Below, in pieces: positions 16,422 through 27,917 of a DNA stretch of 64,000 nucleotides (position 1 is the stretch's first letter; each line of letters begins with the position of its first letter). Position numbers and translations under genes: made by a program. This stretch comes from Candidatus Latescibacterota bacterium (GTDB taxonomy: Bacteria; Latescibacterota; UBA2968; UBA8231). Under the pieces are notes generated by a model. That model was not told the DNA's origin, made no database searches, and worked only from the letters and a program-made list of their open reading frames with translations. The stretch is taken from the NCBI GenBank assembly GCA_965197905.1, contig CBDAOB010000003.1, positions 896,001 to 960,000 of the forward strand, written 5' to 3'.

Positions 16422-19016
16422 TCAGAACCTGAAGTCGATGCCGAAGGTGGGAAGGACCGGGAACATCCTGACCACGTTTGGTTTCTTGCTGGAATCCTCG
16501 GTGTCGTATTCGACAAACCATTCGTTGCGTCGGTTGTAGATGTTGAAGACCTGCACGTAGAGCTCGGCGTTGACCCCGTCGCCAAACATCGTGAGCGTAC
16601 GCCGCGCACCAACGTCCAGACGGTGATAGGGCAGCAAGCGGGCCGTGTTACGCCGCGCTGCGAGCAGCCGGTCTACGGGCTGGTCGGAAGCCGGGTTGCG
16701 CAGTGTATAGCGGGCACCGGCGGGGGTAAAGGCCTGGCCGGTTCCGTAGACAAAATTGGCAGTCAGAATCCACCCACCGCAGGTGGGACAGAGGGGGGCG
16801 AAACGATAGGTGGCAGTCAGCGAAAGATCGTGGCGCCGATCGTACTTCGGTGGGAAGGACTGGCCTGCATCGATCTCCGGGAAGGTTCGCCGCGTCCTGC
16901 CAAGAGTGTAGCCCAACCAGCCGGTTAGGCGGCCGCTGCGTTTCTCAGCGAACAGCTCCAGGCCGGCGGCGTACCCCTTGCCTCCGGTCTTGAACACGTC
17001 TTCGGAGGTCTCCTGCTCCCTGTTCTCCTCCCGCTCCTCGTCGATGACGACCAGATTCGCCAGATCGGTGTAGTAGGTCTCGGCGCTGAGCCGGTAGGCG
17101 TTGGAAGGTTCCCATTCCACGCCCGCCACCGCCTGCCGGGAACGTCCGGGTTCCACAGTCTCGTCCAGCGGGACCCAGCTGTCGGCGCCGCTGAAACCCT
17201 CTGTCGACACCAGCTGCAGGTACTGCCGGTATTGCCCCGCGGCGAGCTTGAGGCGCAGACCCTCCTGCAGCAAATGGCTGACAGACAGACGTGGATTCAC
17301 CGACAGGTGATCCCCCTCTTCGTAGTAGGTACCCCGAACGCCGAAGCGAGCTTCTGTTAGCTGAGTGAGCTGCCAATCGTCCTGGAGGTAGGCCGAGAGG
17401 AGGAACGGTTCGATGGACAGATTGTCTCTGTACTGATCGAACCGGAAGCCGTAGTCGAAGCGGAAGAAGGTGAGATCGAGCCCCGTTCGCAGCGTGTGAT
17501 CGGTCGCGGCGTAGTAGTCCAGGTCCCCCTTCAGGGTTATATCACGCACGCGGTTGCGGATGGCGATGGGTGTATCGAAGATGTCCAGGGTGATGTCGCT
17601 CTGGTATTTGGAGAACATCGCGATAGCGCGTCCGAAAACCGCTGGGGAGAAGACGTGGGTCCAGCGACCGGTCAAGGCCCGGTTGCCCCAGCGCATATCG
17701 AAGGCGAGACTGTCGGCTCCTTCGCTCACACCGACGTTGAGATCGTCGTCGCCCCCGTAGACACTGATCATGAGGTTGTCATCTGGTGTGACCTGGGTGT
17801 TCACCTTGCCGTTGATATCGTAGAAGTAATAACCAAGGCCATCCAGGTTGTCCGAAGCGCCACGAATCGCGCGCAGAACCGGATCGATGTAAGTGCGCCG
17901 GCCGGCCACCATCCAGGAACCCCGACCCAGAGGTCCTTCGACCATGAGGCGGCTGGAGATGAGGCTGACGCCGCCGCTGGTGTTGAAGTCGCGGCGATTC
18001 CCATCGCGATTCTGTACGTCGAGGACCGCGCCCAGGTTGCCGCCGTACTGGGCGGGATAGGCGCCCTTGTAGAAGGTGACGTCCTTGATGGCGTCCGGAT
18101 TGAAGGTGGAGAAGAATCCGAAGGCATGGGAGGGGTTGTAGAGCCGCACTTGGTCGAGCCGGATCCCGGTCTGGTCGGGGCCACCCCCGCGCACGTAAAG
18201 CCCGCTGCTGAAGTCCGACGCCGTCTGCACCCCCGGCAGCAGCTGCAGGCTGCGCAGCAGGTCGGGTTCCGCCATGGCCGGCATGCGCTGCAGCGTCTGC
18301 ATTTTCAGGGCGACGACGCTCGGCTGCTGGCGCAGCTCGTTTTTGACCGGGTTAGCCTCCGCTTCCACCACAACCTCACCCAGGATCAAGGTCTCCCGCT
18401 CCAGCTCGATGTCTAGGCGCAGGTCCTCTCCGGGGGTCAACTCCAAGGTGTCGCGGAACGTGGTGTAACCCACATAGGACACCGCAACTGCAGAAATCCC
18501 TGCGGGGACGCCCTTGATAGCGTAGTAACCTTCGGTGTTGCTGAGAGCGCCCATATTTCGCTCCCCGAACCTCACCGCCACGGTGGCGTTTGGAAGGCTT
18601 TCGCCGTCCCTGCGATCGCGCACGAAACCACTGACGGTGCCGACTCGACGCTGTTTGCCCGACCGTTTCGAGGGAACAATGGCCAACTGACCCTTTTCGG
18701 TAATGTGCAGCTCCGTTCCGGTCTTATTCATCACGTAGAGCAAGGCTTCCAGGGCTCGTACGTCTTTCATTCTGATCGTAATCTTCTCGTTGACCGGAAT
18801 GCGGTCGCGATTGTAACTCAAAGTGAAATCACCCTTGTCGGCGATATCGACGAGGGCCTTCTCCAGGGGGACATCGGTGAGATCGATGGATATGACTGTG
18901 AGAACGGCTTGCGGAAGGTTGCGTCCGCTGAGCTCGATGAAGGAGGCGGGACGAGCGGTTGAGGGAGCGATCAAAGCGGCAATGGCGGCCACCAGGACGA
19001 GCCAGGATCTTGTCAT
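16422..19016 (-). CDS. TonB-dependent receptor with N-terminal STN-like signalling and carboxypeptidase-regulatory-like domains
   Basis: Signal peptide; VPLEKALVDI...FTLSYN (STN-like); VSGFVRD...GESLPNATV; plug LQLLPGV...YVRGG...NPSH; C-terminal Phe. Confidence 0.9.
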   Translation of the reverse strand: MTRSWLVLVAAIAALIAPSTARPASFIELSGRNLPQAVLTVISIDLTDVPLEKALVDIADKGDFTLSYNRDRIPVNEKITIRMKDVRALEALLYVMNKTGTELHITEKGQLAIVPSKRSGKQRRVGTVSGFVRDRRDGESLPNATVAVRFGERNMGALSNTEGYYAIKGVPAGISAVAVSYVGYTTFRDTLELTPGEDLRLDIELERETLILGEVVVEAEANPVKNELRQQPSVVALKMQTLQRMPAMAEPDLLRSLQLLPGVQTASDFSSGLYVRGGGPDQTGIRLDQVRLYNPSHAFGFFSTFNPDAIKDVTFYKGAYPAQYGGNLGAVLDVQNRDGNRRDFNTSGGVSLISSRLMVEGPLGRGSWMVAGRRTYIDPVLRAIRGASDNLDGLGYYFYDINGKVNTQVTPDDNLMISVYGGDDDLNVGVSEGADSLAFDMRWGNRALTGRWTHVFSPAVFGRAIAMFSKYQSDITLDIFDTPIAIRNRVRDITLKGDLDYYAATDHTLRTGLDLTFFRFDYGFRFDQYRDNLSIEPFLLSAYLQDDWQLTQLTEARFGVRGTYYEEGDHLSVNPRLSVSHLLQEGLRLKLAAGQYRQYLQLVSTEGFSGADSWVPLDETVEPGRSRQAVAGVEWEPSNAYRLSAETYYTDLANLVVIDEEREENREQETSEDVFKTGGKGYAAGLELFAEKRSGRLTGWLGYTLGRTRRTFPEIDAGQSFPPKYDRRHDLSLTATYRFAPLCPTCGGWILTANFVYGTGQAFTPAGARYTLRNPASDQPVDRLLAARRNTARLLPYHRLDVGARRTLTMFGDGVNAELYVQVFNIYNRRNEWFVEYDTEDSSKKPNVVRMFPVLPTFGIDFRF

Positions 19017-19065
19017 CTTAACGGAGCCCGTTCATGGCTCTCGCATCAAGATCATCGTCGTTCTT

Positions 19066-20085
19066 TCAGTCTTTCGATGTCAACCGGACCACATCGCCAG
19101 TTCGCTGATATTCCAGATCCGTCAATGCCGAGCTCAGCTCCAGAACACCCTCCAGGGACTCAGCGTCGATATGCAACGTAAGCTGCTCCGCAGCAATAGC
19201 GGTATCCTCAGTAATAAATCGCACATCGTACCAGCGTTCTAGTTGATGCAGGATCTCACTCAAGGGAACGCTGTCAAAGAACGCTTCCCGATGCAGCCAG
19301 CCCAGATGTTTCGCTATCTCCACAGCACGCGGTTTTGCTGGCAAACCGTCCTTCGGACACACGCTCATCTCTCCCTTCCCGATCCCCACATCCTGCCTTC
19401 TGTCCCCATCAGCACCGAATGAGACTTTTCCTTCCGCAACCGCGACGGTGACCCTCTGTTCCCCCTGCCACGCTCTCACATTGAACCGAGTTCCCAGAAC
19501 CCGGATTCTCGCGTCATCGGCGCGTACGACAAACGGCTGGTTCGTACGGGACGCCACCTCGAAATACCCCTCGCCGGAAAGCCGCACCGCGCGCTCTTCT
19601 CCTTCGAACGTTGCGGGATACTCTAGAACGCTTCCGGAATCCAATCGAATCCGGGTGCCGTCGCTGAGAGCGAGTTGGCGATGAGCACCGCTCTCCACCA
19701 CCATCTCTTCCCATTCGATCCGTTTCTCGAACGGGAAAACTCCTGCTTCCCGCGCCCCGTAAAACGCCACCGAGGTGGCGATGAGCAAGACAGCGGCTGC
19801 CGCATACCGACGGACAGGATGAAACCAATCGACGAAACGGCCGGCACGGCGGGTTTTTACGGCCGGCACGGTTATTCCCGTCTTCTCGGCGATGTCGTGC
19901 CACATTCCGTTCAGATCAGAGGTGACAGGCTGTGGTTCCGACGTATTCCACACGGTGCTCATGATCGCCATAAGCCGCCGATTTTCCGGGTCGGCAGCGA
20001 TCAGCTCTTCCACTGCTGCCTTTTCTTCCATCGAGCATTCACCCGATAGATAACGTGCGAACAACGCGTCGGATGTCTCGCTCAT
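19066..20085 (-). CDS. fecR: FecR-family anti-sigma factor
   Basis: LSDGTRIRLDSGS, RAVRLSGEGYFEV, VLGTRFNV, LERWYDV; ATG at 20085 after GGAGGAG. Confidence 0.9.
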   Translation of the reverse strand: MSETSDALFARYLSGECSMEEKAAVEELIAADPENRRLMAIMSTVWNTSEPQPVTSDLNGMWHDIAEKTGITVPAVKTRRAGRFVDWFHPVRRYAAAAVLLIATSVAFYGAREAGVFPFEKRIEWEEMVVESGAHRQLALSDGTRIRLDSGSVLEYPATFEGEERAVRLSGEGYFEVASRTNQPFVVRADDARIRVLGTRFNVRAWQGEQRVTVAVAEGKVSFGADGDRRQDVGIGKGEMSVCPKDGLPAKPRAVEIAKHLGWLHREAFFDSVPLSEILHQLERWYDVRFITEDTAIAAEQLTLHIDAESLEGVLELSSALTDLEYQRTGDVVRLTSKD

Positions 20086-20185
20086 GTCTCCTCCATAGTC
20101 CCAGCCTGCCAACCTGTCAGAAACTCACCGAAAGCTTTGCGCCCAGACTTCCGTTCTCTGGATTGAGAGTGGGACTCATGCTCAT

Positions 20186-20791
20186 CTAACCGGCAGACTT
20201 TCCGTATTTGAATCTCACCGCGTCCCGCTTTCGCTCAATCGTCTTGATGCCGTCAATCCAGTCGTGAAGGATCTGACCTACCAGCAAACCTGCTCCGAGA
20301 ACGACGAATGGCCCGCCCCCACCCCCATCGGTTTTTCGCTCCAGTTTCCTCAGCTTGTAGGTCAAAACACCGCCCTCGTCCTCGATCGGTATCTTCTCGT
20401 AACGTCTGACCCTGCCGCGCACTCCGGTCACATCGACGATCTCGAAGTTGGTTTTCTCCCATCTGTTCTCCTTCTTGTCCCTCATGGATGCGCCAAGGAC
20501 AACGGATACTCCCCCCAATACGGCGGCGCCCACATGCATCCAGCCTTCTCTCTTCTCACCGGCATAGAAGTGCAACGTCCCGGGGAGTGGGACCGACATC
20601 AAAATCAAGCCGACACCCAACCGGCGGTTGGCGTCTCTGTACTCCTCCAGGGTCATTTCAGCCGGTACCGGCCATATGGGAACCTCATTAAGCATCTCGT
20701 TGCCACCATGACTCTGTGCCGTTGAATCTTCGACTACGACGATCGATGATGAGAAGAGCAGGACTGCGAAAACTCCGATGATCTCTTTCAC
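20186..20791 (-). CDS. Hypothetical membrane/exported protein
   Basis: GTG at 20791 after GGAGGT; signal-peptide-like N-terminus, PLPGTLHFYAG motif and two hydrophobic segments. Confidence 0.6.
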   Translation of the reverse strand: MKEIIGVFAVLLFSSSIVVVEDSTAQSHGGNEMLNEVPIWPVPAEMTLEEYRDANRRLGVGLILMSVPLPGTLHFYAGEKREGWMHVGAAVLGGVSVVLGASMRDKKENRWEKTNFEIVDVTGVRGRVRRYEKIPIEDEGGVLTYKLRKLERKTDGGGGGPFVVLGAGLLVGQILHDWIDGIKTIERKRDAVRFKYGKSAG

Positions 20792-20963
20792 GATAACCTC
20801 CAGGATGGGCTGAAAAACTACGATCTTGGACCGGAATACTCGATAAAACACACCACTGATACCCCTGAGTCAGAAGTTACCCTGACATCGATCACAAAAA
20901 AACTCCACCAATGAATGTGCCTGCGACGACGTGGAGGCGCGAGTCTCAGAAAATGGGAGGCGC

Positions 20964-21515
20964 TCAGAGCAGGTGGGCGAGTCGTTCCCGCAAGAATCTC
21001 AGGGCATGCCCCATCTGTGTTTCCACAGTCTTGATGGAAACGCCCTGAATCTCGGCGATCTCGGTGTAGGTCAAATGATCGAAGCGGTTCATGGAAAAAC
21101 AGATCCGAGTTTTTTCAGGGAGTGCCTCGACGGCCTGGTGAATTGCAGTGGAAATCTCCGTACCCTGCAACTCATCCTCCGGCGTCTTTGGTCCGGGAAA
21201 CTTCGGAGTTTTGTCTTCCAGGCTCCGGCGCACCACGTCTCCATGCCTCAGGTGCTTCAGCGCCCGGTTCTTGGCGGCGGTGTACAGGTAGCTCTTCACG
21301 CTGAGGGTTGGATCGAGCTGGGTCCTGTTCCCCCACACGGAGAGAAACAGATCCTGGACGAGATTCTCCGCAGTTTGAATATCGCGTACATAGCGGCCGA
21401 CGAACTGAATCAGGGGTTGACAATATGAGCGGAAAAGTTGCTCAAACGCCTTCCCGTCGCCGACGCGAATATTCCGGACCCATTCGGCTTCAATATGCTT
21501 TGACACGTTGGGCAC
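20964..21515 (-). CDS. ECF RNA polymerase sigma-70 factor (FecI/Bacteroides-type)
   Basis: GDGKAFEQLF, AENLVQDLFLSVW, SYLYTAAKN, LTYTEIAEIQGVSIKTVETQM. Confidence 0.92.
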   Translation of the reverse strand: MPNVSKHIEAEWVRNIRVGDGKAFEQLFRSYCQPLIQFVGRYVRDIQTAENLVQDLFLSVWGNRTQLDPTLSVKSYLYTAAKNRALKHLRHGDVVRRSLEDKTPKFPGPKTPEDELQGTEISTAIHQAVEALPEKTRICFSMNRFDHLTYTEIAEIQGVSIKTVETQMGHALRFLRERLAHLL

Positions 21516-21826: not shown

Positions 21827-24522
21827 ATGGCTGCATCTAATTCCCCCCAGGGGTCTCGTTCCCTTCCGGAACATCCCGATCTTCACCAACTCAAGAAACA
21901 GGCCAAGGAACTGCTCAAGGGCTATCGCTCTGGTAATTCGGCAGCGGTAGCTGAGGTGGAAACCCACGAGCGGGAGCCGGATCCAGGAAGATTCTCCCTG
22001 AACGATGCGCAGCGGGTGTTGGCCCGGGCATACGGGTTTACCAGCTGGGCGCGGCTAGTTGAGCGCGTAAACGGCTTTAGCGCCGAACGCTTTTGGGTAG
22101 CCGCCCAAGAGGGGGATCTGCAGACCCTGAAGTCGATGGTTGCCAAACGACCTGCGTTGGTCATGATGGCACGGCCCAGCCACGGCAATCCGTTGCATTG
22201 CGCCGTGCTCAACCGGGACGTTGCATGCGCTCGCTTTCTGCTCGAAAACGGAGCCGATCCTCACAAAGGTGTCTATCCGCACCGTGAGTCCACTTCCCCG
22301 CTTGTTCTGGCACAAGAAAGGGAATTCGACGACATCGTAGAGGTCATTGAAACCGAGCTCCAGCAACGGAGGTTACGGGTCGGCGCCACGCGATCAGATA
22401 CGAGAGACGTTGCAGAGGCGATCCGCAAAAACGATGAGGACGCCGTGTACCGGTTACTAGAAGCGGACGCTGAACGCGTGACGGCCGTCGACGAACGGGG
22501 CCGCAAGCCCCTGCATCACACTGCTGCGGCGCGCAATCGGACGCTGACCGCACGCATCTTGCAATTGGACCGCAAACTCTCCGAACCTGACGTCGACGGT
22601 TTGAGCCCGATCGACTGCGCCGTGTTGGCGGCCGACTGGACGCAGAGAGAGGAAACTACGAGGGCGGGCAGATCCGTGGCCGAACTCCTGTTAGAGCACG
22701 GAGCGGATCCTACGCCGCGAAGCGCCGCAGCGACCGGAGACTTGGCGTATTTGCAATCACTGAATCGCACAAACCTGGAGGCATGCGCCATAGACGGTGG
22801 TGGTGGGTTGTTGACACTGGCCGTGAAATACGGCCAACGGGAAGTCTTGAACCATCTGCTGGAATCAGGTCTGGACCCGGATGAGCGCGTGCAACTCGAC
22901 GATGCAGAGGAAGAGATCTACACCTGGGGAATGCCGCTCTGGCACGCCGCTTCCTACTCCGAATACGAGATGGCGGAATCGTTGATCGCTGCCGGCGCTG
23001 ACGTTAACGCGGCAGTTTATGGTGCGCCGTGCTAAGGCGCACATCTTCAGTGGGTGCGAATCCCACCCGGCAAGGGTCGCTCCAGCCGGTAGCAATCGGA
23101 GCAGTGGTGGAGGCGACGAAGCCGCTGAAGCCTCCGGTGTAGAGGGTCGCCTTGGGCGACTTGGCGAGCACACAGGCCGTAACGTGAGTAAACGCTGAGC
23201 AGGCCTCGAAAAGTGTAATGCGGAAGCCGACCTGCCCGTAAACCAGGGAAGGCCGCTGCAGCTGGGGAAGTCGAGCGACAAGCGCACTCAGCTGTTCCGC
23301 CGGGGTAGTGGCGACAGCATGTGTGTAAGAGGAGATGTGGCGCAACACGGGAAGCCTCATCCGGTGGAAGCAGCGAGTGCCTCCAACCGGTAACCCGCGA
23401 GGGCCAGACTGGGCTGGATGAGGTGGCGGACAGGCGCGTAGTACCGAGGAAGCCGGGTAACTCCGGTGGAGGGAAGGGGCCTGACTTCGGACATGCTGCG
23501 GAAGTGCAGAGGGTTGGAGAGTGGCGTGAGCCTATTGCCTCCAGCAGTAAGACTAGTATGCATCGGAAGCAGCTTGACTACCAGGTGAAGTCCTTGTGGC
23601 GTGTGCCTGGATGTGACGTTCGTCGGGAAGCCGGATGCGGGAGATCCGCACGTCCGGTTTGAGGCGGCGGGAACTGGAAACGTAGCGATGGGAGTCGGAC
23701 TGAGGGCTATGGCGAAAGCCATGGGGAACCCACCGAACCCTAAGGCTGGCGCGCCAGTTCTCGACCCTACCCAGCGGTTCACCGATGGACCGGGCTTACG
23801 GTGCCGACGATGAGAAGATGAAGGTCTTGTTGCGTCGCCACGGTGCGTTCACTAGCGTCGAAACCATGGGACTGTATCGCGACACCGAAGCGGCACGAGC
23901 AGTCCTGGAAGGAAGGACGACCGCGTACTCTCATCCCGACCCGGTCAGAGACGGTTCTACCGCAGAGAATATGCTATGGGGGGCGGCCTGTGGGGGCGAT
24001 CCCGAGATCGTCGCCATGTGTCTCGCCCGCATCGACCGTGCACCGGACGATTCATGGTGGGCGGTAATCCTCCTGCAACCCATGCGCACGTGGAACCATG
24101 GTTACCACCGACGCCATTCGGGCTTCGACAGGTCTACCTATACGCAATGTCTCGACTTGCTGTTGCAGCACGGCATCAATCCGGACGTTACGGATCAACG
24201 GGGGTTCACTGCGCTGCACGATCTTGCCCACGGCTCTTGTTCAGGTTCCTGGAACATGACGGAAAAGGAGGAACTCGAATTCGGCCGCCTGTTGTTGGAT
24301 GCCGGCGCCAGTTTGGCAGCGCGCGATCCGCTACTAAGGTCAACGCCTCTGGGATGGGCTTGCCGCAACGGTCGAATTCGGCTGGCTGAACTAATGATCG
24401 AACGCGGCGCTGCCGTCAACGAACCGGACGCCGAACCCTGGGCAACGCCACTTGCGTGGGCAACGAAGATGGGTCACGAAGAGATTGTGACGCTGCTTCG
24501 AGGTCGCGGGGCGAAGGCGTGA
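21827..24522 (+). CDS. Ankyrin-repeat protein, 648 aa after splicing: join(21827..23021,23771..24522)
   Basis: Ankyrin repeats in both exons (NPLHCA, LLENGAD, TPLGWA, TPLAWA). Removing the intron gives in-frame ...DVNAAVY-A-SGSP-MDRAYG... N-terminal LPEHPDLHQLKKQAKELL...AQRVLARAYGFTSW domain. Confidence 0.9.
23022..23770 (+). mobile_element. ORF-less group II intron (IIB-like ribozyme), 749 nt
   Basis: 5' GTGCG; domain III-like element ~23431-23483; domain V AAGCCGGATGCGGGAGATCCGCACGTCCGGTTT (23628-60) with AGC triad; domain VI ending CTCGACCCTAC with candidate branch A at 23764 and terminal AC; EBS1 CGTAAAC (23237-43) pairs with exon end GTTTATG; no RT ORF. Confidence 0.95.
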
Positions 24523-24739: not shown

Positions 24740-27700
24740 ATGCAGAAGTACCTACTACCCCGCCTTTCCGTAAACCGGCCCGTCACCGTCGTGATGGCGC
24801 TCACGGCGTTGTTGGTGGTCGGATGGATTTGCCTATCTGCGCATACCGGTGGCTCTCGAACCCAAGGGCGAGGCCAAACCGGTTCTTTGGGCATGGCTTC
24901 CTTTTCCGAACGCCACCGCCCCCCAGGTTCTTGAGGAGATCGTCATTCCCCTGGAGGACGCATTAGCCACGCTTACGGGCTTCAAAGGCACCAAAGCCGG
25001 CGCGCAGAGAGACCGGGGTCATTCGATGGTCTATTACCACAAAGGCACCGATATGAAACGGGCATGGCTCGAGCTGTTGGAGCGCATGGATTGGCTGTTC
25101 GCCCAACTTGACTACGACGCCACCCTCAAGCGTCGTGAGATCGACATCGGCTGGTTGGATTCGGGGGATGAAAGTTTCCGCGTGATGGGGATCCGCTGTC
25201 TCTTCGACCAATCGGTGACGCGGCCGGGACTGCTGCTCGAAGAAACGATAAAACCGGCTTTGATGCGCATCGCCGGCGTCGCCGGCGTTGGAGTCTGGAG
25301 TGGTCCCGACCAAGAGCTTCTGATTGCTTTGGACGAGGACAAGGTGCAGAGCCTCGGTGCCGATGTCGATCAGGTGCTGGAACGAATCACGGAGGACAAC
25401 TTCGCCCTCTCCGGCGGCCATGTCATCGAAGGAGGTCGTCGCATTAAGGTGCGTTCGATGGCGAATCTGAACTCGGTCGAGAAGTACAGGAATCTTCTTG
25501 TTGATCCCCGGCGCGGCCTGCGCCTGCGCGACATCGCCGATGTCCAGCTGAACACCGATACCGGTATCCGGTTCACCCGCATCAACCGCAAGGACGCGGT
25601 CTGGATCGGAATTCAGCGTTCCCCTGACGCCAATATCGTTGCAGTCTGTGCCGAGGCGCGCAAGAGTCTGGAGAAATTCGCCCAAGATCCACGAATGGCA
25701 GGAGCCGAATTGAGAGTTGTCTGGGATCAGGCGGAATACATCACGGCGTCGATCGACAATCTCAAGATTTCGGGACTTTGGGGCGGACTGTTTGCGGCGA
25801 TCATACTGGTGTTCTTTCTGCGCAATATTCCCATGACCTTGATCATCACCAGCGCTATACCACTGTCGATCCTCGCCAGCATGACTGCCGTTTATTTCTA
25901 CGGTTGGACGTTGAACGTGGCCACCATGATGGGTTTGATGTTGAGCCTTGGATTGGTAGTCGATAATGCTATCGTAGTGGTGGAGAACATTTTTCGTAAG
26001 CGCGCGGAAGGAATCGACGCGCGGGAAGCTTCCATCCAGGGTGCCGGAGAAGTCGGTCTGGCCATTACCATGGCGACATTAACTACGGTCGTCGTATTTC
26101 TGCCCCTGATCCTGATGACCGACGATGATTTTTTCTCCTTTTGGATGTGGCGAGTAGGGATGCCCGTCACGCTAGGGCTTTTCGCCTCCCTCTTCGTAGC
26201 TTTGTTTCTGTTTCCGCTGGCGGCCCAGCGTTTTTCCAGTCGTGGGGCGCAGAGGGAGCGGAGGGCAATTCGGCAGCTTGAGCGCAAATACGGATCCTCT
26301 CTTCGATGGGTCTTGTCACACCGTCTGGACGCCTTGATCCTGGTGGTGGTTGTGGGGGCCAGTGCATGGATCCCATACGAAGGCATCGAGCAGACCGACC
26401 GGGCATCCAAACGGCGCAGTTACGCCTGGATGAAGTTCGACATGCCCCGGGGCTATTCGCTGGAACAGCTGAACGAGTTCATGACCACCGTCGAAGATAC
26501 CCTCATGAACCAGCGCGAGCGGTACAACGCCGATCAGGTTCGGATTTCCTACTACTACGGCTTTGGTGGGCGGGCTTCGATCTCGTTGCAGAAGGAGGAG
26601 CGCCTGGAATGGTACGAGGTGGTCTGGAGCGGTATTCTCGATCGGCTCGGCATGCTGGAAAAAACGAGACTGGACTACGACGAGCTGATCGCCGACTTGA
26701 GGCAGCGCCTGCCGACCCGGCCGGGCATTTTCTTGAGAATCAACGACGAACAGGGCGAAGAGAGCGACGCTTCCCTGACACTGAATATCTGCGGTAAGGA
26801 CTATCTGGTGTTGACGGAGCTGGCGCTGGAGGTGCAACGGCGCCTGTCGAGCATTCCCGGTTTCCTTGCTGTGCACACCGACATGGATCGCGGATCATCG
26901 GAGGTCCAGATACAACTGGACCGCGAGAAGATGGAGCGCTACGGGATCCAGCCGCGCTCCGTGTCCAACGCCATCAGCATGCGCTGGCCCATCGGCGCTC
27001 AACCGATTGACGAGATCGGATGGACTCGTATCGGTAGCGATCGCGAAATCCGCATCAAAGCCCAGTTGGAGGATGAAGACGGCCGCAGTCTTCAACAGCT
27101 GCGAAACCTGACGTTCAAGGCAAACGACACTACCGAAATTCCGCTCACAGCCTTCGCTGCCTTCTATTTCGACAACACCCTCGACTTAATAAGGCGCTAC
27201 AATCGTCAGACCATGGTGGCGGTGACGGACTACGCCACCAAGGACGATGCCAAGGGTCTCTTCGACCAGGTGGACGCGGCTATGGCGGACCTGGAGATGC
27301 CCCGGGGATACCGCTGGGACAAAGGTGCGCGCTTCATCCGCATGGAGGAGACTGACAAAGCCCAGCAGTTTGCCATAGCGCTGTCAATCACGTTCGTGTT
27401 TCTGCTCATGGGGGTTCTGTTCGAATCGTTCGTGTTGCCGCTGTCGGTCATCGTCTCTATTCCGTTCGCCGGCCTGGGGGTCTACTGGACCCTCTACGCT
27501 ACCGGTACGCCAATGGATGACATGTCCCGTATCGGCATGGTGATCCTGGTGGGGGTGGTAGTGAACAATGCTATCGTCCTGGTGGATCTGGTCAATCGAC
27601 TGCGCAATGAGGGCATGGAGCGATACGAGGCCTTGGTGCAGGCCGGCCGGCACCGGTTTCGACCGATCCTCATGACTACCTTTACGACAATCTTCGGTTT

Positions 27701-27917
27701 GATCCCCATGGCGGTAGGAAACCCGAATGTCGTCGGCACCGATTACGCACCGTTGGGTCGGACGATGATGGGGGGATTGCTGGCGTCGATGGTGTTAGCC
27801 CTGTTAGTTGTGCCTCTATGCTACACCTTTTTCGACGATCTCCGCGAGGTGGTGGGGCAAGCCATGAGATCGGCGGCGCGGTCATCGGCGCGCCGACTTA
27901 CGCAAGGTGTGGCGTAG
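24740..27917 (+). CDS. RND efflux permease (AcrB/AcrD/AcrF family); frameshift near 24828
   Basis: SVNRPVTV N-terminus, GLVVDNAIVVVENI, VVNNAIVLVD, RFRPILMTT. Deleting one T at 24828-30 joins the 24740 and 24849 frames. Confidence 0.9.

Follow-up and report, generated by a model that had tools for sequence, protein, structure and literature searches.

The 64,000-nt stretch of a Candidatus Latescibacterota genome analysed here (the window; positions 896,001 to 960,000 of contig CBDAOB010000003.1) contains an ankyrin-repeat gene interrupted by a group II intron without an open reading frame (ORF), which raises the question whether such an intron controls its host gene or simply came to rest in it. 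The gene lies on the plus strand. Exon 1 (21827..23021) comprises 398 codons and one base, the 749-nt intron (23022..23770, plus strand) being inserted in phase 1, and exon 2 (23771..24522) begins with the C that serves as intron-binding site 3 (IBS3). Without splicing, the frame 21827-23035 is closed by an in-frame TAA (23033..23035, plus strand) after 402 amino acids (aa); upon removal of the intron, a 648-aa ankyrin protein with a single stop at its end is obtained, in agreement with the initial annotation, according to which the full-length product depends on splicing. Ankyrin repeats are present in the products of both exons, and besides the intron the frame has no lesion. From the analyses described below, it is probable that the intron is a non-autonomous mobile element of the g3/former class F lineage, which spread in a recent burst, was moved in trans by the reverse transcriptase (RT) of a sister intron and entered the ankyrin gene as an off-target site.

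A BLASTN search of the genome (G000 in coordinates outside the window), suggested earlier as a way to find sibling copies and an RT-bearing parent, indeed detected both: 13 copies of the intron, 12 of them full and one cut at nt 700, with identities of 99.6-100%, and one related RT intron. Compared with the window copy, one full copy is identical, nine differ by T267C only, and one shows T267C and two single-base indels. The T at intron nt 267 is confined to the ankyrin copy and the copy adjoining the RT intron; contigs of sequencing runs X1 and X3 read C. The cut copy, C3:360466, and C2:7475 have 448 nt of 5' flank in common, so that 12 independent sites are counted, which fall into 5-7 attC sites of integrons, four genes and one intergenic position. 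Two of the attC assignments, C2:28623 at a cassette end and the site next to the RT intron, are doubtful. The common flank points to at least one duplicate at the DNA level. That the whole family arose in this way, by cassette duplication or recombination, or that it represents assembly artefacts, is most unlikely, given that the other 12 copies have unrelated flanks, precise ends and guide-matching targets. In addition, intron depth in contigs of X1 and X3 (two studies; X1 may be the source sample) is 174-176 versus 8-14 for the exons, which fits many copies.

For the ankyrin gene, a close orthologue (78-85%) was found in three of 40 relatives, encoding proteins of 648 aa (G002), 647 aa (G004) and 577 aa (G020). 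None of the three contains the intron, and the junction region reads VYASGSPMD, as had been predicted (VYASGSP) for intron-less orthologues. The G002 protein is identical to the spliced product in 328 of 398 residues before the junction and in 220 of 250 after it. The insertion must therefore be very recent, considering the 13 near-identical copies and the empty orthologues, and an intact ankyrin frame is consequently no evidence of selection for splicing. These data bear directly on the proposal of the initial annotation that splicing acts as a switch, with products of either 402 or 648 aa. Such a domesticated intron would be in accordance with the sense orientation, the precise restoration of the frame, the early stop at 23035, the ankyrin repeats in both parts and the same exon 1-intron junction in the runs of two studies (X1 and X3, without mismatch up to 23050). 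Frame restoration, however, follows from any precise sense insertion of a group II intron, the window intron shows 0-1 differences from 10 other full copies, and its position is not conserved in the orthologues. A stable residence in one locus, as expected of a regulatory intron of the C.te.I1 type, is not seen for an intron with 13 fresh copies, and the switch was not borne out; we regard it as very unlikely. The ankyrin gene is an accessory gene and a chance landing site of the mobile intron, and it matters little itself. Sense orientation need not mean selection either, since all 13 copies are located on the locally G-rich strand, in line with the preference of endonuclease-less introns for the lagging-strand template (PMC4615759).

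The structure leaves little doubt about the nature of the element. It starts with GTGCG (23022-23026) and ends with AC (23769-23770). The segment 23048-23187 matches the Rfam model group-II-D1D4-4 (RF02003) with 106.8 bits at a cut-off of 49, and 23626-23738 matches Intron_gpII with 39.2 bits, slightly below the cut-off of 40, probably because domain VI is long. Domain V (23628..23660, plus strand) exhibits the AGC triad (23629-23631), an AC bulge and a 5-nt loop. Domain VI (23663..23768, plus strand) measures about 105 nt and leaves the branch A at 23764, the seventh base from the intron end, unpaired. Domain IV (23484..23625, plus strand) is shortened to about 140 nt and represents the decayed start of an RT gene in which a hairpin round the former start codon has been kept; the shortened domain is common to ORF-less introns of other genomes. 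The alpha sequence GTCGCTC (23076..23082, plus strand) is complementary over 7 bp to alpha' GAGCGAC (23273..23279, plus strand), which is located in the loop of a stem-loop following the stem of exon-binding site 1 (EBS1), a position typical of classes E and F (PMC3753933). In related introns, this pairing reaches a mean of 6.5 pairs with the own partner versus 5.1 for permuted partners (maximum 5.5 of 300). The boundaries, domains V and IV and the branch point are thereby the same as those first annotated. GUGYG...AY ends, the triad and bulge of domain V, the branch A of domain VI and a domain I that folds with the pairings EBS-IBS and alpha-alpha' identify a group II intron. As the one negative, folding energy of the whole intron is no better than that of shuffles (z -1.58; 2 of 20 equally good), an uninformative result. 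Class E/F RNAs are marked by a 5-nt domain V loop, alpha' in a terminal loop and an ORF-free ribozyme of 450-700 nt (PMC3753933); the first two features are present here, and the ribozyme without domain IV is about 610 nt long. The RNA is IIB-like and does not belong to IIC, which has a CGC triad, whereas AGC and, by covariation, an EBS2 are found here.

The target rules could be read from related introns. Among 80 related RT loci, both ends were found in 46, of which 44 introns were analysed after addition of the window intron and removal of duplicates. These introns are not independent, yet many differing guides each match their own exon. EBS1 CGTAAAC (23237..23243, plus strand; intron nt 216-222) covaries with exon positions -1 to -7, Watson-Crick pairs being present in 80-91% of cases at -1 to -5, 66% at -6 and 55% at -7. 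The EBS1-IBS1 pairing proposed at the outset is thereby confirmed: in the window, IBS1 GTTTATG (23015..23021, plus strand) forms six Watson-Crick pairs and one G-U pair. EBS3, the G at 23308 (23308..23308, plus strand; nt 287), and exon position +1 are Watson-Crick partners in 89% of the 44 introns, with all four pair types represented. EBS2 GTGT (23213..23216, plus strand) was also defined by covariation; its partner is a 4-nt IBS2 that begins between -15 and -13. A score of at least 3.5 of 4 with the own exon is reached in 24 of 39 parsed introns, compared with 4.8 on average and at most 13 when partners were permuted 2,000 times. Further upstream, a TRRC word at -19 to -14 occurs in 21 of the 44 sites (shuffles: mean 4.1, maximum 11). 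At the ankyrin site this distal element (23005..23010, plus strand; supported by covariation) consists of an unpaired TA (23005-06) followed by IBS2 ACGC (23007-10) and reads TAAC, the motif closing the R'' box of attC sites (box names as in PMC7923331). TAAC as a motif read purely by protein was considered and rejected, its last two bases covarying with EBS2. All 12 sites of this genome have an IBS1 of at least 5.5 of 7, an IBS2 of at least 3 of 4 and C at +1, and nine have the TA. The ankyrin site scores 6.5 of 7 for IBS1 with EBS3 matched, and the codons for V-N-A-A-V-Y simply spell TAAC-N6-GTTTATG|C. It is not an attC site.

A source of protein in trans, as postulated in the initial annotation, is available. 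The sole related RT-bearing intron of the genome (G000:C3:1187174-1189158, 1,985 nt; the helper in the following) encodes a 441-aa RT with an intact YADD motif and the domains RVT_1 and GIIM; no endonuclease or other Pfam domain was found in it. It is preceded head to tail by an ORF-less copy at one target site (G000:C3:1186425-1189158), an arrangement known as a product of RmInt2 (PMC4615759). In a tree of 23 RTs, with class names from Tables S1 part 1 and S2 of PMC3552965 and constructed without class E or g4 references, the helper RT groups with the g3 references, a fragment from A. caldus (100/97) and Ni.ha.I1 (98/97), apart from those of g1, g2 and D. Its closest titled relatives come from Latescibacterota. 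Many near-identical copies without ORF at guide-matched sites, together with a related RT intron in the same genome, are what a non-autonomous intron should look like. Alternatively, the intron could self-splice without protein and have been moved by another RT, either that of an 11-copy g1-like family or that on C1. The higher copy number, 11 RT copies versus one sister RT, and a domain IV nearer to that of distant ORF-less introns (110/141) than to that of the sister would agree with this idea. Among the 12 other RT matches of the genome, the two representatives compared are only 29-32% identical to the helper RT and belong to other clades, a TA upstream of IBS2 is characteristic of the sister lineage, and the sister and an ORF-less copy use one common target site with identical guides. 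Mobilisation by another RT is therefore considered improbable.

The relation between the ORF-less intron and the helper turned out to be mosaic. Nucleotides 1-225 are identical to the helper (225/225) and nearly so to an RT intron of G002 (217/225), so that polishing of one assembly is not the source of the identity. Domain IV was found in the same short version in ORF-less introns of another family: four of 167 other genomes of the phylum gave matches, and it was seen in G040, G077, G093 and two of 14 metagenome loci. To the G040 element, domain IV is 110/141 identical and nt 1-225 are 181/223 identical. Apparently, the ORF was lost long ago, and the 5' guide region came from the RT clade by recombination. 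A fresh deletion of the ORF from the local helper was rejected as an origin, domain IV being old. The G040 element itself (L042, G040:C5:2226397 region) is 756 nt long and ORF-less; it interrupts a gene for an ABC permease in frame, with an EBS1 that fits the exon end poorly.

The sites outside genes appear to reveal the preferred target. An integron integrase (TIGR02249, 366.7 bits) is encoded at C3:204281-205219, and an integrase fragment lies beside an array on C2. In the arrays, every ORF is succeeded by an inverted repeat with the ends TAAC...GTTA, and by their ends, repeats and integrase these repeats qualify as attC sites. Profiles trained exclusively on intron-free repeats of this genome, with a layout of our own instead of IntegronFinder, gave 62 matches covering 4,782 bases of 6.68 million, and four of the 12 emptied insertion sites were among the sequences matched. 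A fifth emptied site is a 141-nt long attC (0 of 200 shuffles). In attC, the intron is inserted in the cassette (top) strand, 16-17 nt past the T of TAAC and directly after the L'' arm, the partner of the far side of the hairpin; intron, profile matches and cassette ORFs are all on the same strand, contrary to the bottom-strand insertion of IIC-attC introns. A IIC intron on the top strand has reportedly been observed in Enterobacter cloacae. Four of five guide-matching sites with TA in attC are occupied versus 4 of 46 elsewhere (Fisher p 0.0013, with occupancy thresholds chosen after the sites had been seen). RT-bearing near relatives in which EBS1 is changed to CGTGAAT are found in the same attC family, two of three in G002 and the only one in G020. 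A 747-nt ORF-less relative at metagenome locus L230 is followed by a sequence 110/127 identical to the long attC on the 3' side, a site that the profiles miss. Targeting of attC throughout the lineage was rejected as far as it was testable: no match to the profiles was obtained for 39 sites of more distant RT introns (both ends and sufficient flank were available for 42 of 80 loci), with profiles built on the attC family of this genome, and a generic hairpin test missed two of four profile-positive attC sites. Hence, the attC preference seems confined to this clade, as far as can be judged from a test derived from these repeats. In sedentary integrons, the attC bottom strand belongs to the leading-strand template in 25 of 30 cases (PMC5371416); the top strand would therefore be the exposed one favoured by such introns.

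Whether splicing takes place was addressed with four of 20 listed sequencing runs, all examined as contigs. The sponge metatranscriptomes X6 and X8 cover the intron at a depth of 42-45 with one difference and the exons at a depth of 0. The bacterium probably lives in association with a sponge, as judged from the sponge metatranscriptomes that hold the RNA. One contig of X6 starts exactly at 23022, one base later than expected for DNA unitigs, a weak hint, from a single contig, of a free intron end. The intron can probably splice at the ankyrin site.

The other host genes are relevant to a further possibility, compatible with a mobile origin, namely that the insertion in effect knocks out the ankyrin gene, being too poorly spliced or residing in a silent gene, and that the copy persists as the gene is dispensable. 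Four genes carry copies, ankyrin, nuoH-like, flgE-like and FG-GAP, all four in sense and in frame, and in each case removal of the intron restores the alignment with intron-less orthologues. The flgE-like gene (flagellar hook) and the FG-GAP repeat gene are named by sequence likeness, not by a family scan. The nuoH copy (G000:C1:65627-64879, sense) interrupts the sole nuoH-like gene, the only PF00146 match, in which a frameshift occurs at a G run just upstream of the intron; its operon contains further shifts. The copies in the flgE-like gene (G000:C5:2488863-2488115) and the FG-GAP gene (C4:594290-593542) are each followed by a frameshift later in the gene. Thus, three of four host genes show a separate frameshift versus 25 of 213 genes sampled genome-wide (a count that includes a repeated transposase; chance about 0.03), which would favour a knock-out. 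In the same direction, nuoH was not found in G004 and G020, nor flgE in G002, G004 and G020 (genomes 91-93% complete), a close ankyrin orthologue was found in only the three of 40 relatives mentioned, and both RNA runs lack exon coverage. The frameshifts may be homopolymer assembly errors as well as real decay, and the ankyrin frame has none. Moreover, all catalytic and pairing elements are intact, with the good IBS1 and EBS3 matches of this site, and self-splicing in vitro is known for g3/F introns, e.g. D.a.I1 (PMC3753933). A knock-out is thus possible, though not the outcome we expect. The idea of nuoH as an essential host gene that needs splicing is weakened by its G-run frameshift, be it real or an assembly error.

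Several observations weigh against the mobile, attC-directed intron proposed here, among them the late choice of occupancy thresholds and the calling of attC sites by our own profile and layout. Empty genomic sites whose IBS1 scores 6 or more number 581 to 584, and attC could also be enriched if harmful insertions had been lost. The ORF-less copy adjoining the helper has G instead of C at +1. Domain IV, to which the maturase usually binds, has an identity of only 79/130 with that of the helper. The GC skew underlying the strand bias is weak (0.011-0.031) and confounded with the coding strand. No spliced or intron-less junction was present in the contigs of the four runs, which is no proof of absence as contigs drop rare forms, and the intron coverage in X6 and X8 could come from DNA carry-over of a 13-copy element.

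Taken together, the mobile intron would act as follows. The ORF-less intron would be transcribed within host RNAs, and its splicing and its reverse splicing into DNA, hence retrohoming, would be helped in trans by the RT/maturase of the helper. Targets would be chosen by RNA-DNA pairing of EBS1 with -1 to -7, of EBS3 with the C at +1 and, over 4 bp, of EBS2 with a stretch starting at -15 to -13, next to the upstream TA. The guides of the clade would fit the top strand of one attC family, with TAAC of R'' and then the L'' arm, and a chance copy of an attC-like motif in the ankyrin gene would have led to the off-target insertion. Full-length ankyrin protein now depends on splicing; nothing points to regulation. 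The burst offers a natural snapshot of non-autonomous intron spread, in which a single helper, 12 independent sites and relatives with empty alleles come together, and allows the rules by which an endonuclease-less g3/F intron selects its targets to be deduced from sequence. It also indicates a route into integrons differing from that of IIC-attC introns in strand, position and chemistry, by which cassette excision may change. A wider scenario can be imagined, which we put forward as speculative and rather unlikely to hold in full. An old protein-less lineage would persist by adopting the guide module of any RT intron that happens to be available, its guides in this clade would be adapted to the top strand of attC, where EBS2 would recognise the R'' box, and cassettes would be locked against excision while the intron splices from their RNA. 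The four sense, in-frame gene insertions relying on one maturase would then mark the onset of an intron colonisation like that of organelles, within a bacterium associated with a host.

Other introns and neighbouring genes were noted during these analyses. A second ORF-less group II intron (G000:C3:349429-348603, minus strand) is present in a single copy of 827 nt with a similarly long domain VI. By its EBS1 it matches the more common attC family, and it is inserted in a site of this kind, in the top strand after the same arm. The unrelated g1-like RT intron family consists of 11 near-identical copies (e.g. G000:C3:277843-278535), several of them within a repeated 3.5-kb unit, so that a different mobile element may be its homing target. 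At C1:176662-177803 lies a single RT intron belonging to a further class, whose RT matches a partly deleted copy on C4, and a lone fragment of domains V and VI was found at G000:C5:668275-668349. Within the window, ankyrin residues 1-80 (21827-22080) form a module without Pfam match, to which many paralogues across the family show likeness. A promoter scan around the gene gave one match compared with a shuffle mean of 1.0. Divergent from the ankyrin gene, an ordinary module of extracytoplasmic function sigma factor, FecR and TonB-dependent receptor occupies 16422-21515 on the minus strand. Downstream, a gene of the AcrB family (about 24740-27917) shows a frameshift near 24830 relative to the G002 orthologue, which is real or an assembly error.

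How does the element compare with known systems? ORF-less bacterial introns are described as rare and nearly always adjoining a related RT intron in the part of PMC4424553 drawn on here, and mobilisation in trans has been shown for the TeI3 ORF-less introns of Thermosynechococcus elongatus, driven by TeI4c (Mohr et al. 2010, PMC2882425). By analogy, a trans-mobilised ORF-less intron such as the one in the window would be a known kind of element. The TeI introns are IIB1 with an endonuclease-type protein, whereas here an endonuclease-less g3/F intron with one helper is found, in a single family with one fresh burst, preference for attC and a mosaic structure. Ni.ha.I1 and D.a.I1 (PMC3552965, PMC3753933) are similar in several respects: the sister RT groups with g3, its intron of 1,985 nt encodes an RT-X protein, and the RNA has the 5-nt domain V loop and alpha' in a terminal loop. 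Unlike these g3/F references, the window element lacks an ORF, has a domain VI of about 105 nt and leaves 2-4 unpaired bases between IBS2 and IBS1; attC targeting is not mentioned for them in the sections of the two papers used. The ORF-less intron of Clostridium tetani, C.te.I1 (PMC4424553), also resides within a protein gene and is the model behind the switch idea. As characterised in the same part of that paper, it has no related RT in its genome and is alternatively spliced in vivo, in contrast to the 13 fresh copies and the helper RT described here.

Insertion into integron attC is shared with IIC-attC introns such as S.ma.I2 (PMC3001079, PMC7923331). As far as the portions of these papers used here describe them, IIC-attC introns are inserted at R'' in the bottom strand, against the cassette direction, and have a CGC triad, a short EBS1 and no EBS2. 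The intron of the window family is located in the top strand after the L'' arm and has AGC, a 7-nt EBS1, EBS2 and EBS3. Non-IIC introns in integron arrays that follow the direction of the cassettes are represented by the IIB introns UHB.I2 and H.ha.F1/F2, reported as single cases (Sonbol and Siam 2021, PMC7923331); the former is a single CL1 intron just downstream of attC and the latter are class E fragments, as characterised in the section consulted, unlike a g3/F clade that is found inside attC repeatedly, in several genomes and also in ORF-less form. Searches of the open-access literature found no report of an intron of the g3/F type, or of one lacking an ORF, within the top strand of attC. 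Less usual than in the known trans-mobilised introns are the repeated g3/F-type entry into the attC top strand via three RNA guides and the mosaic build.

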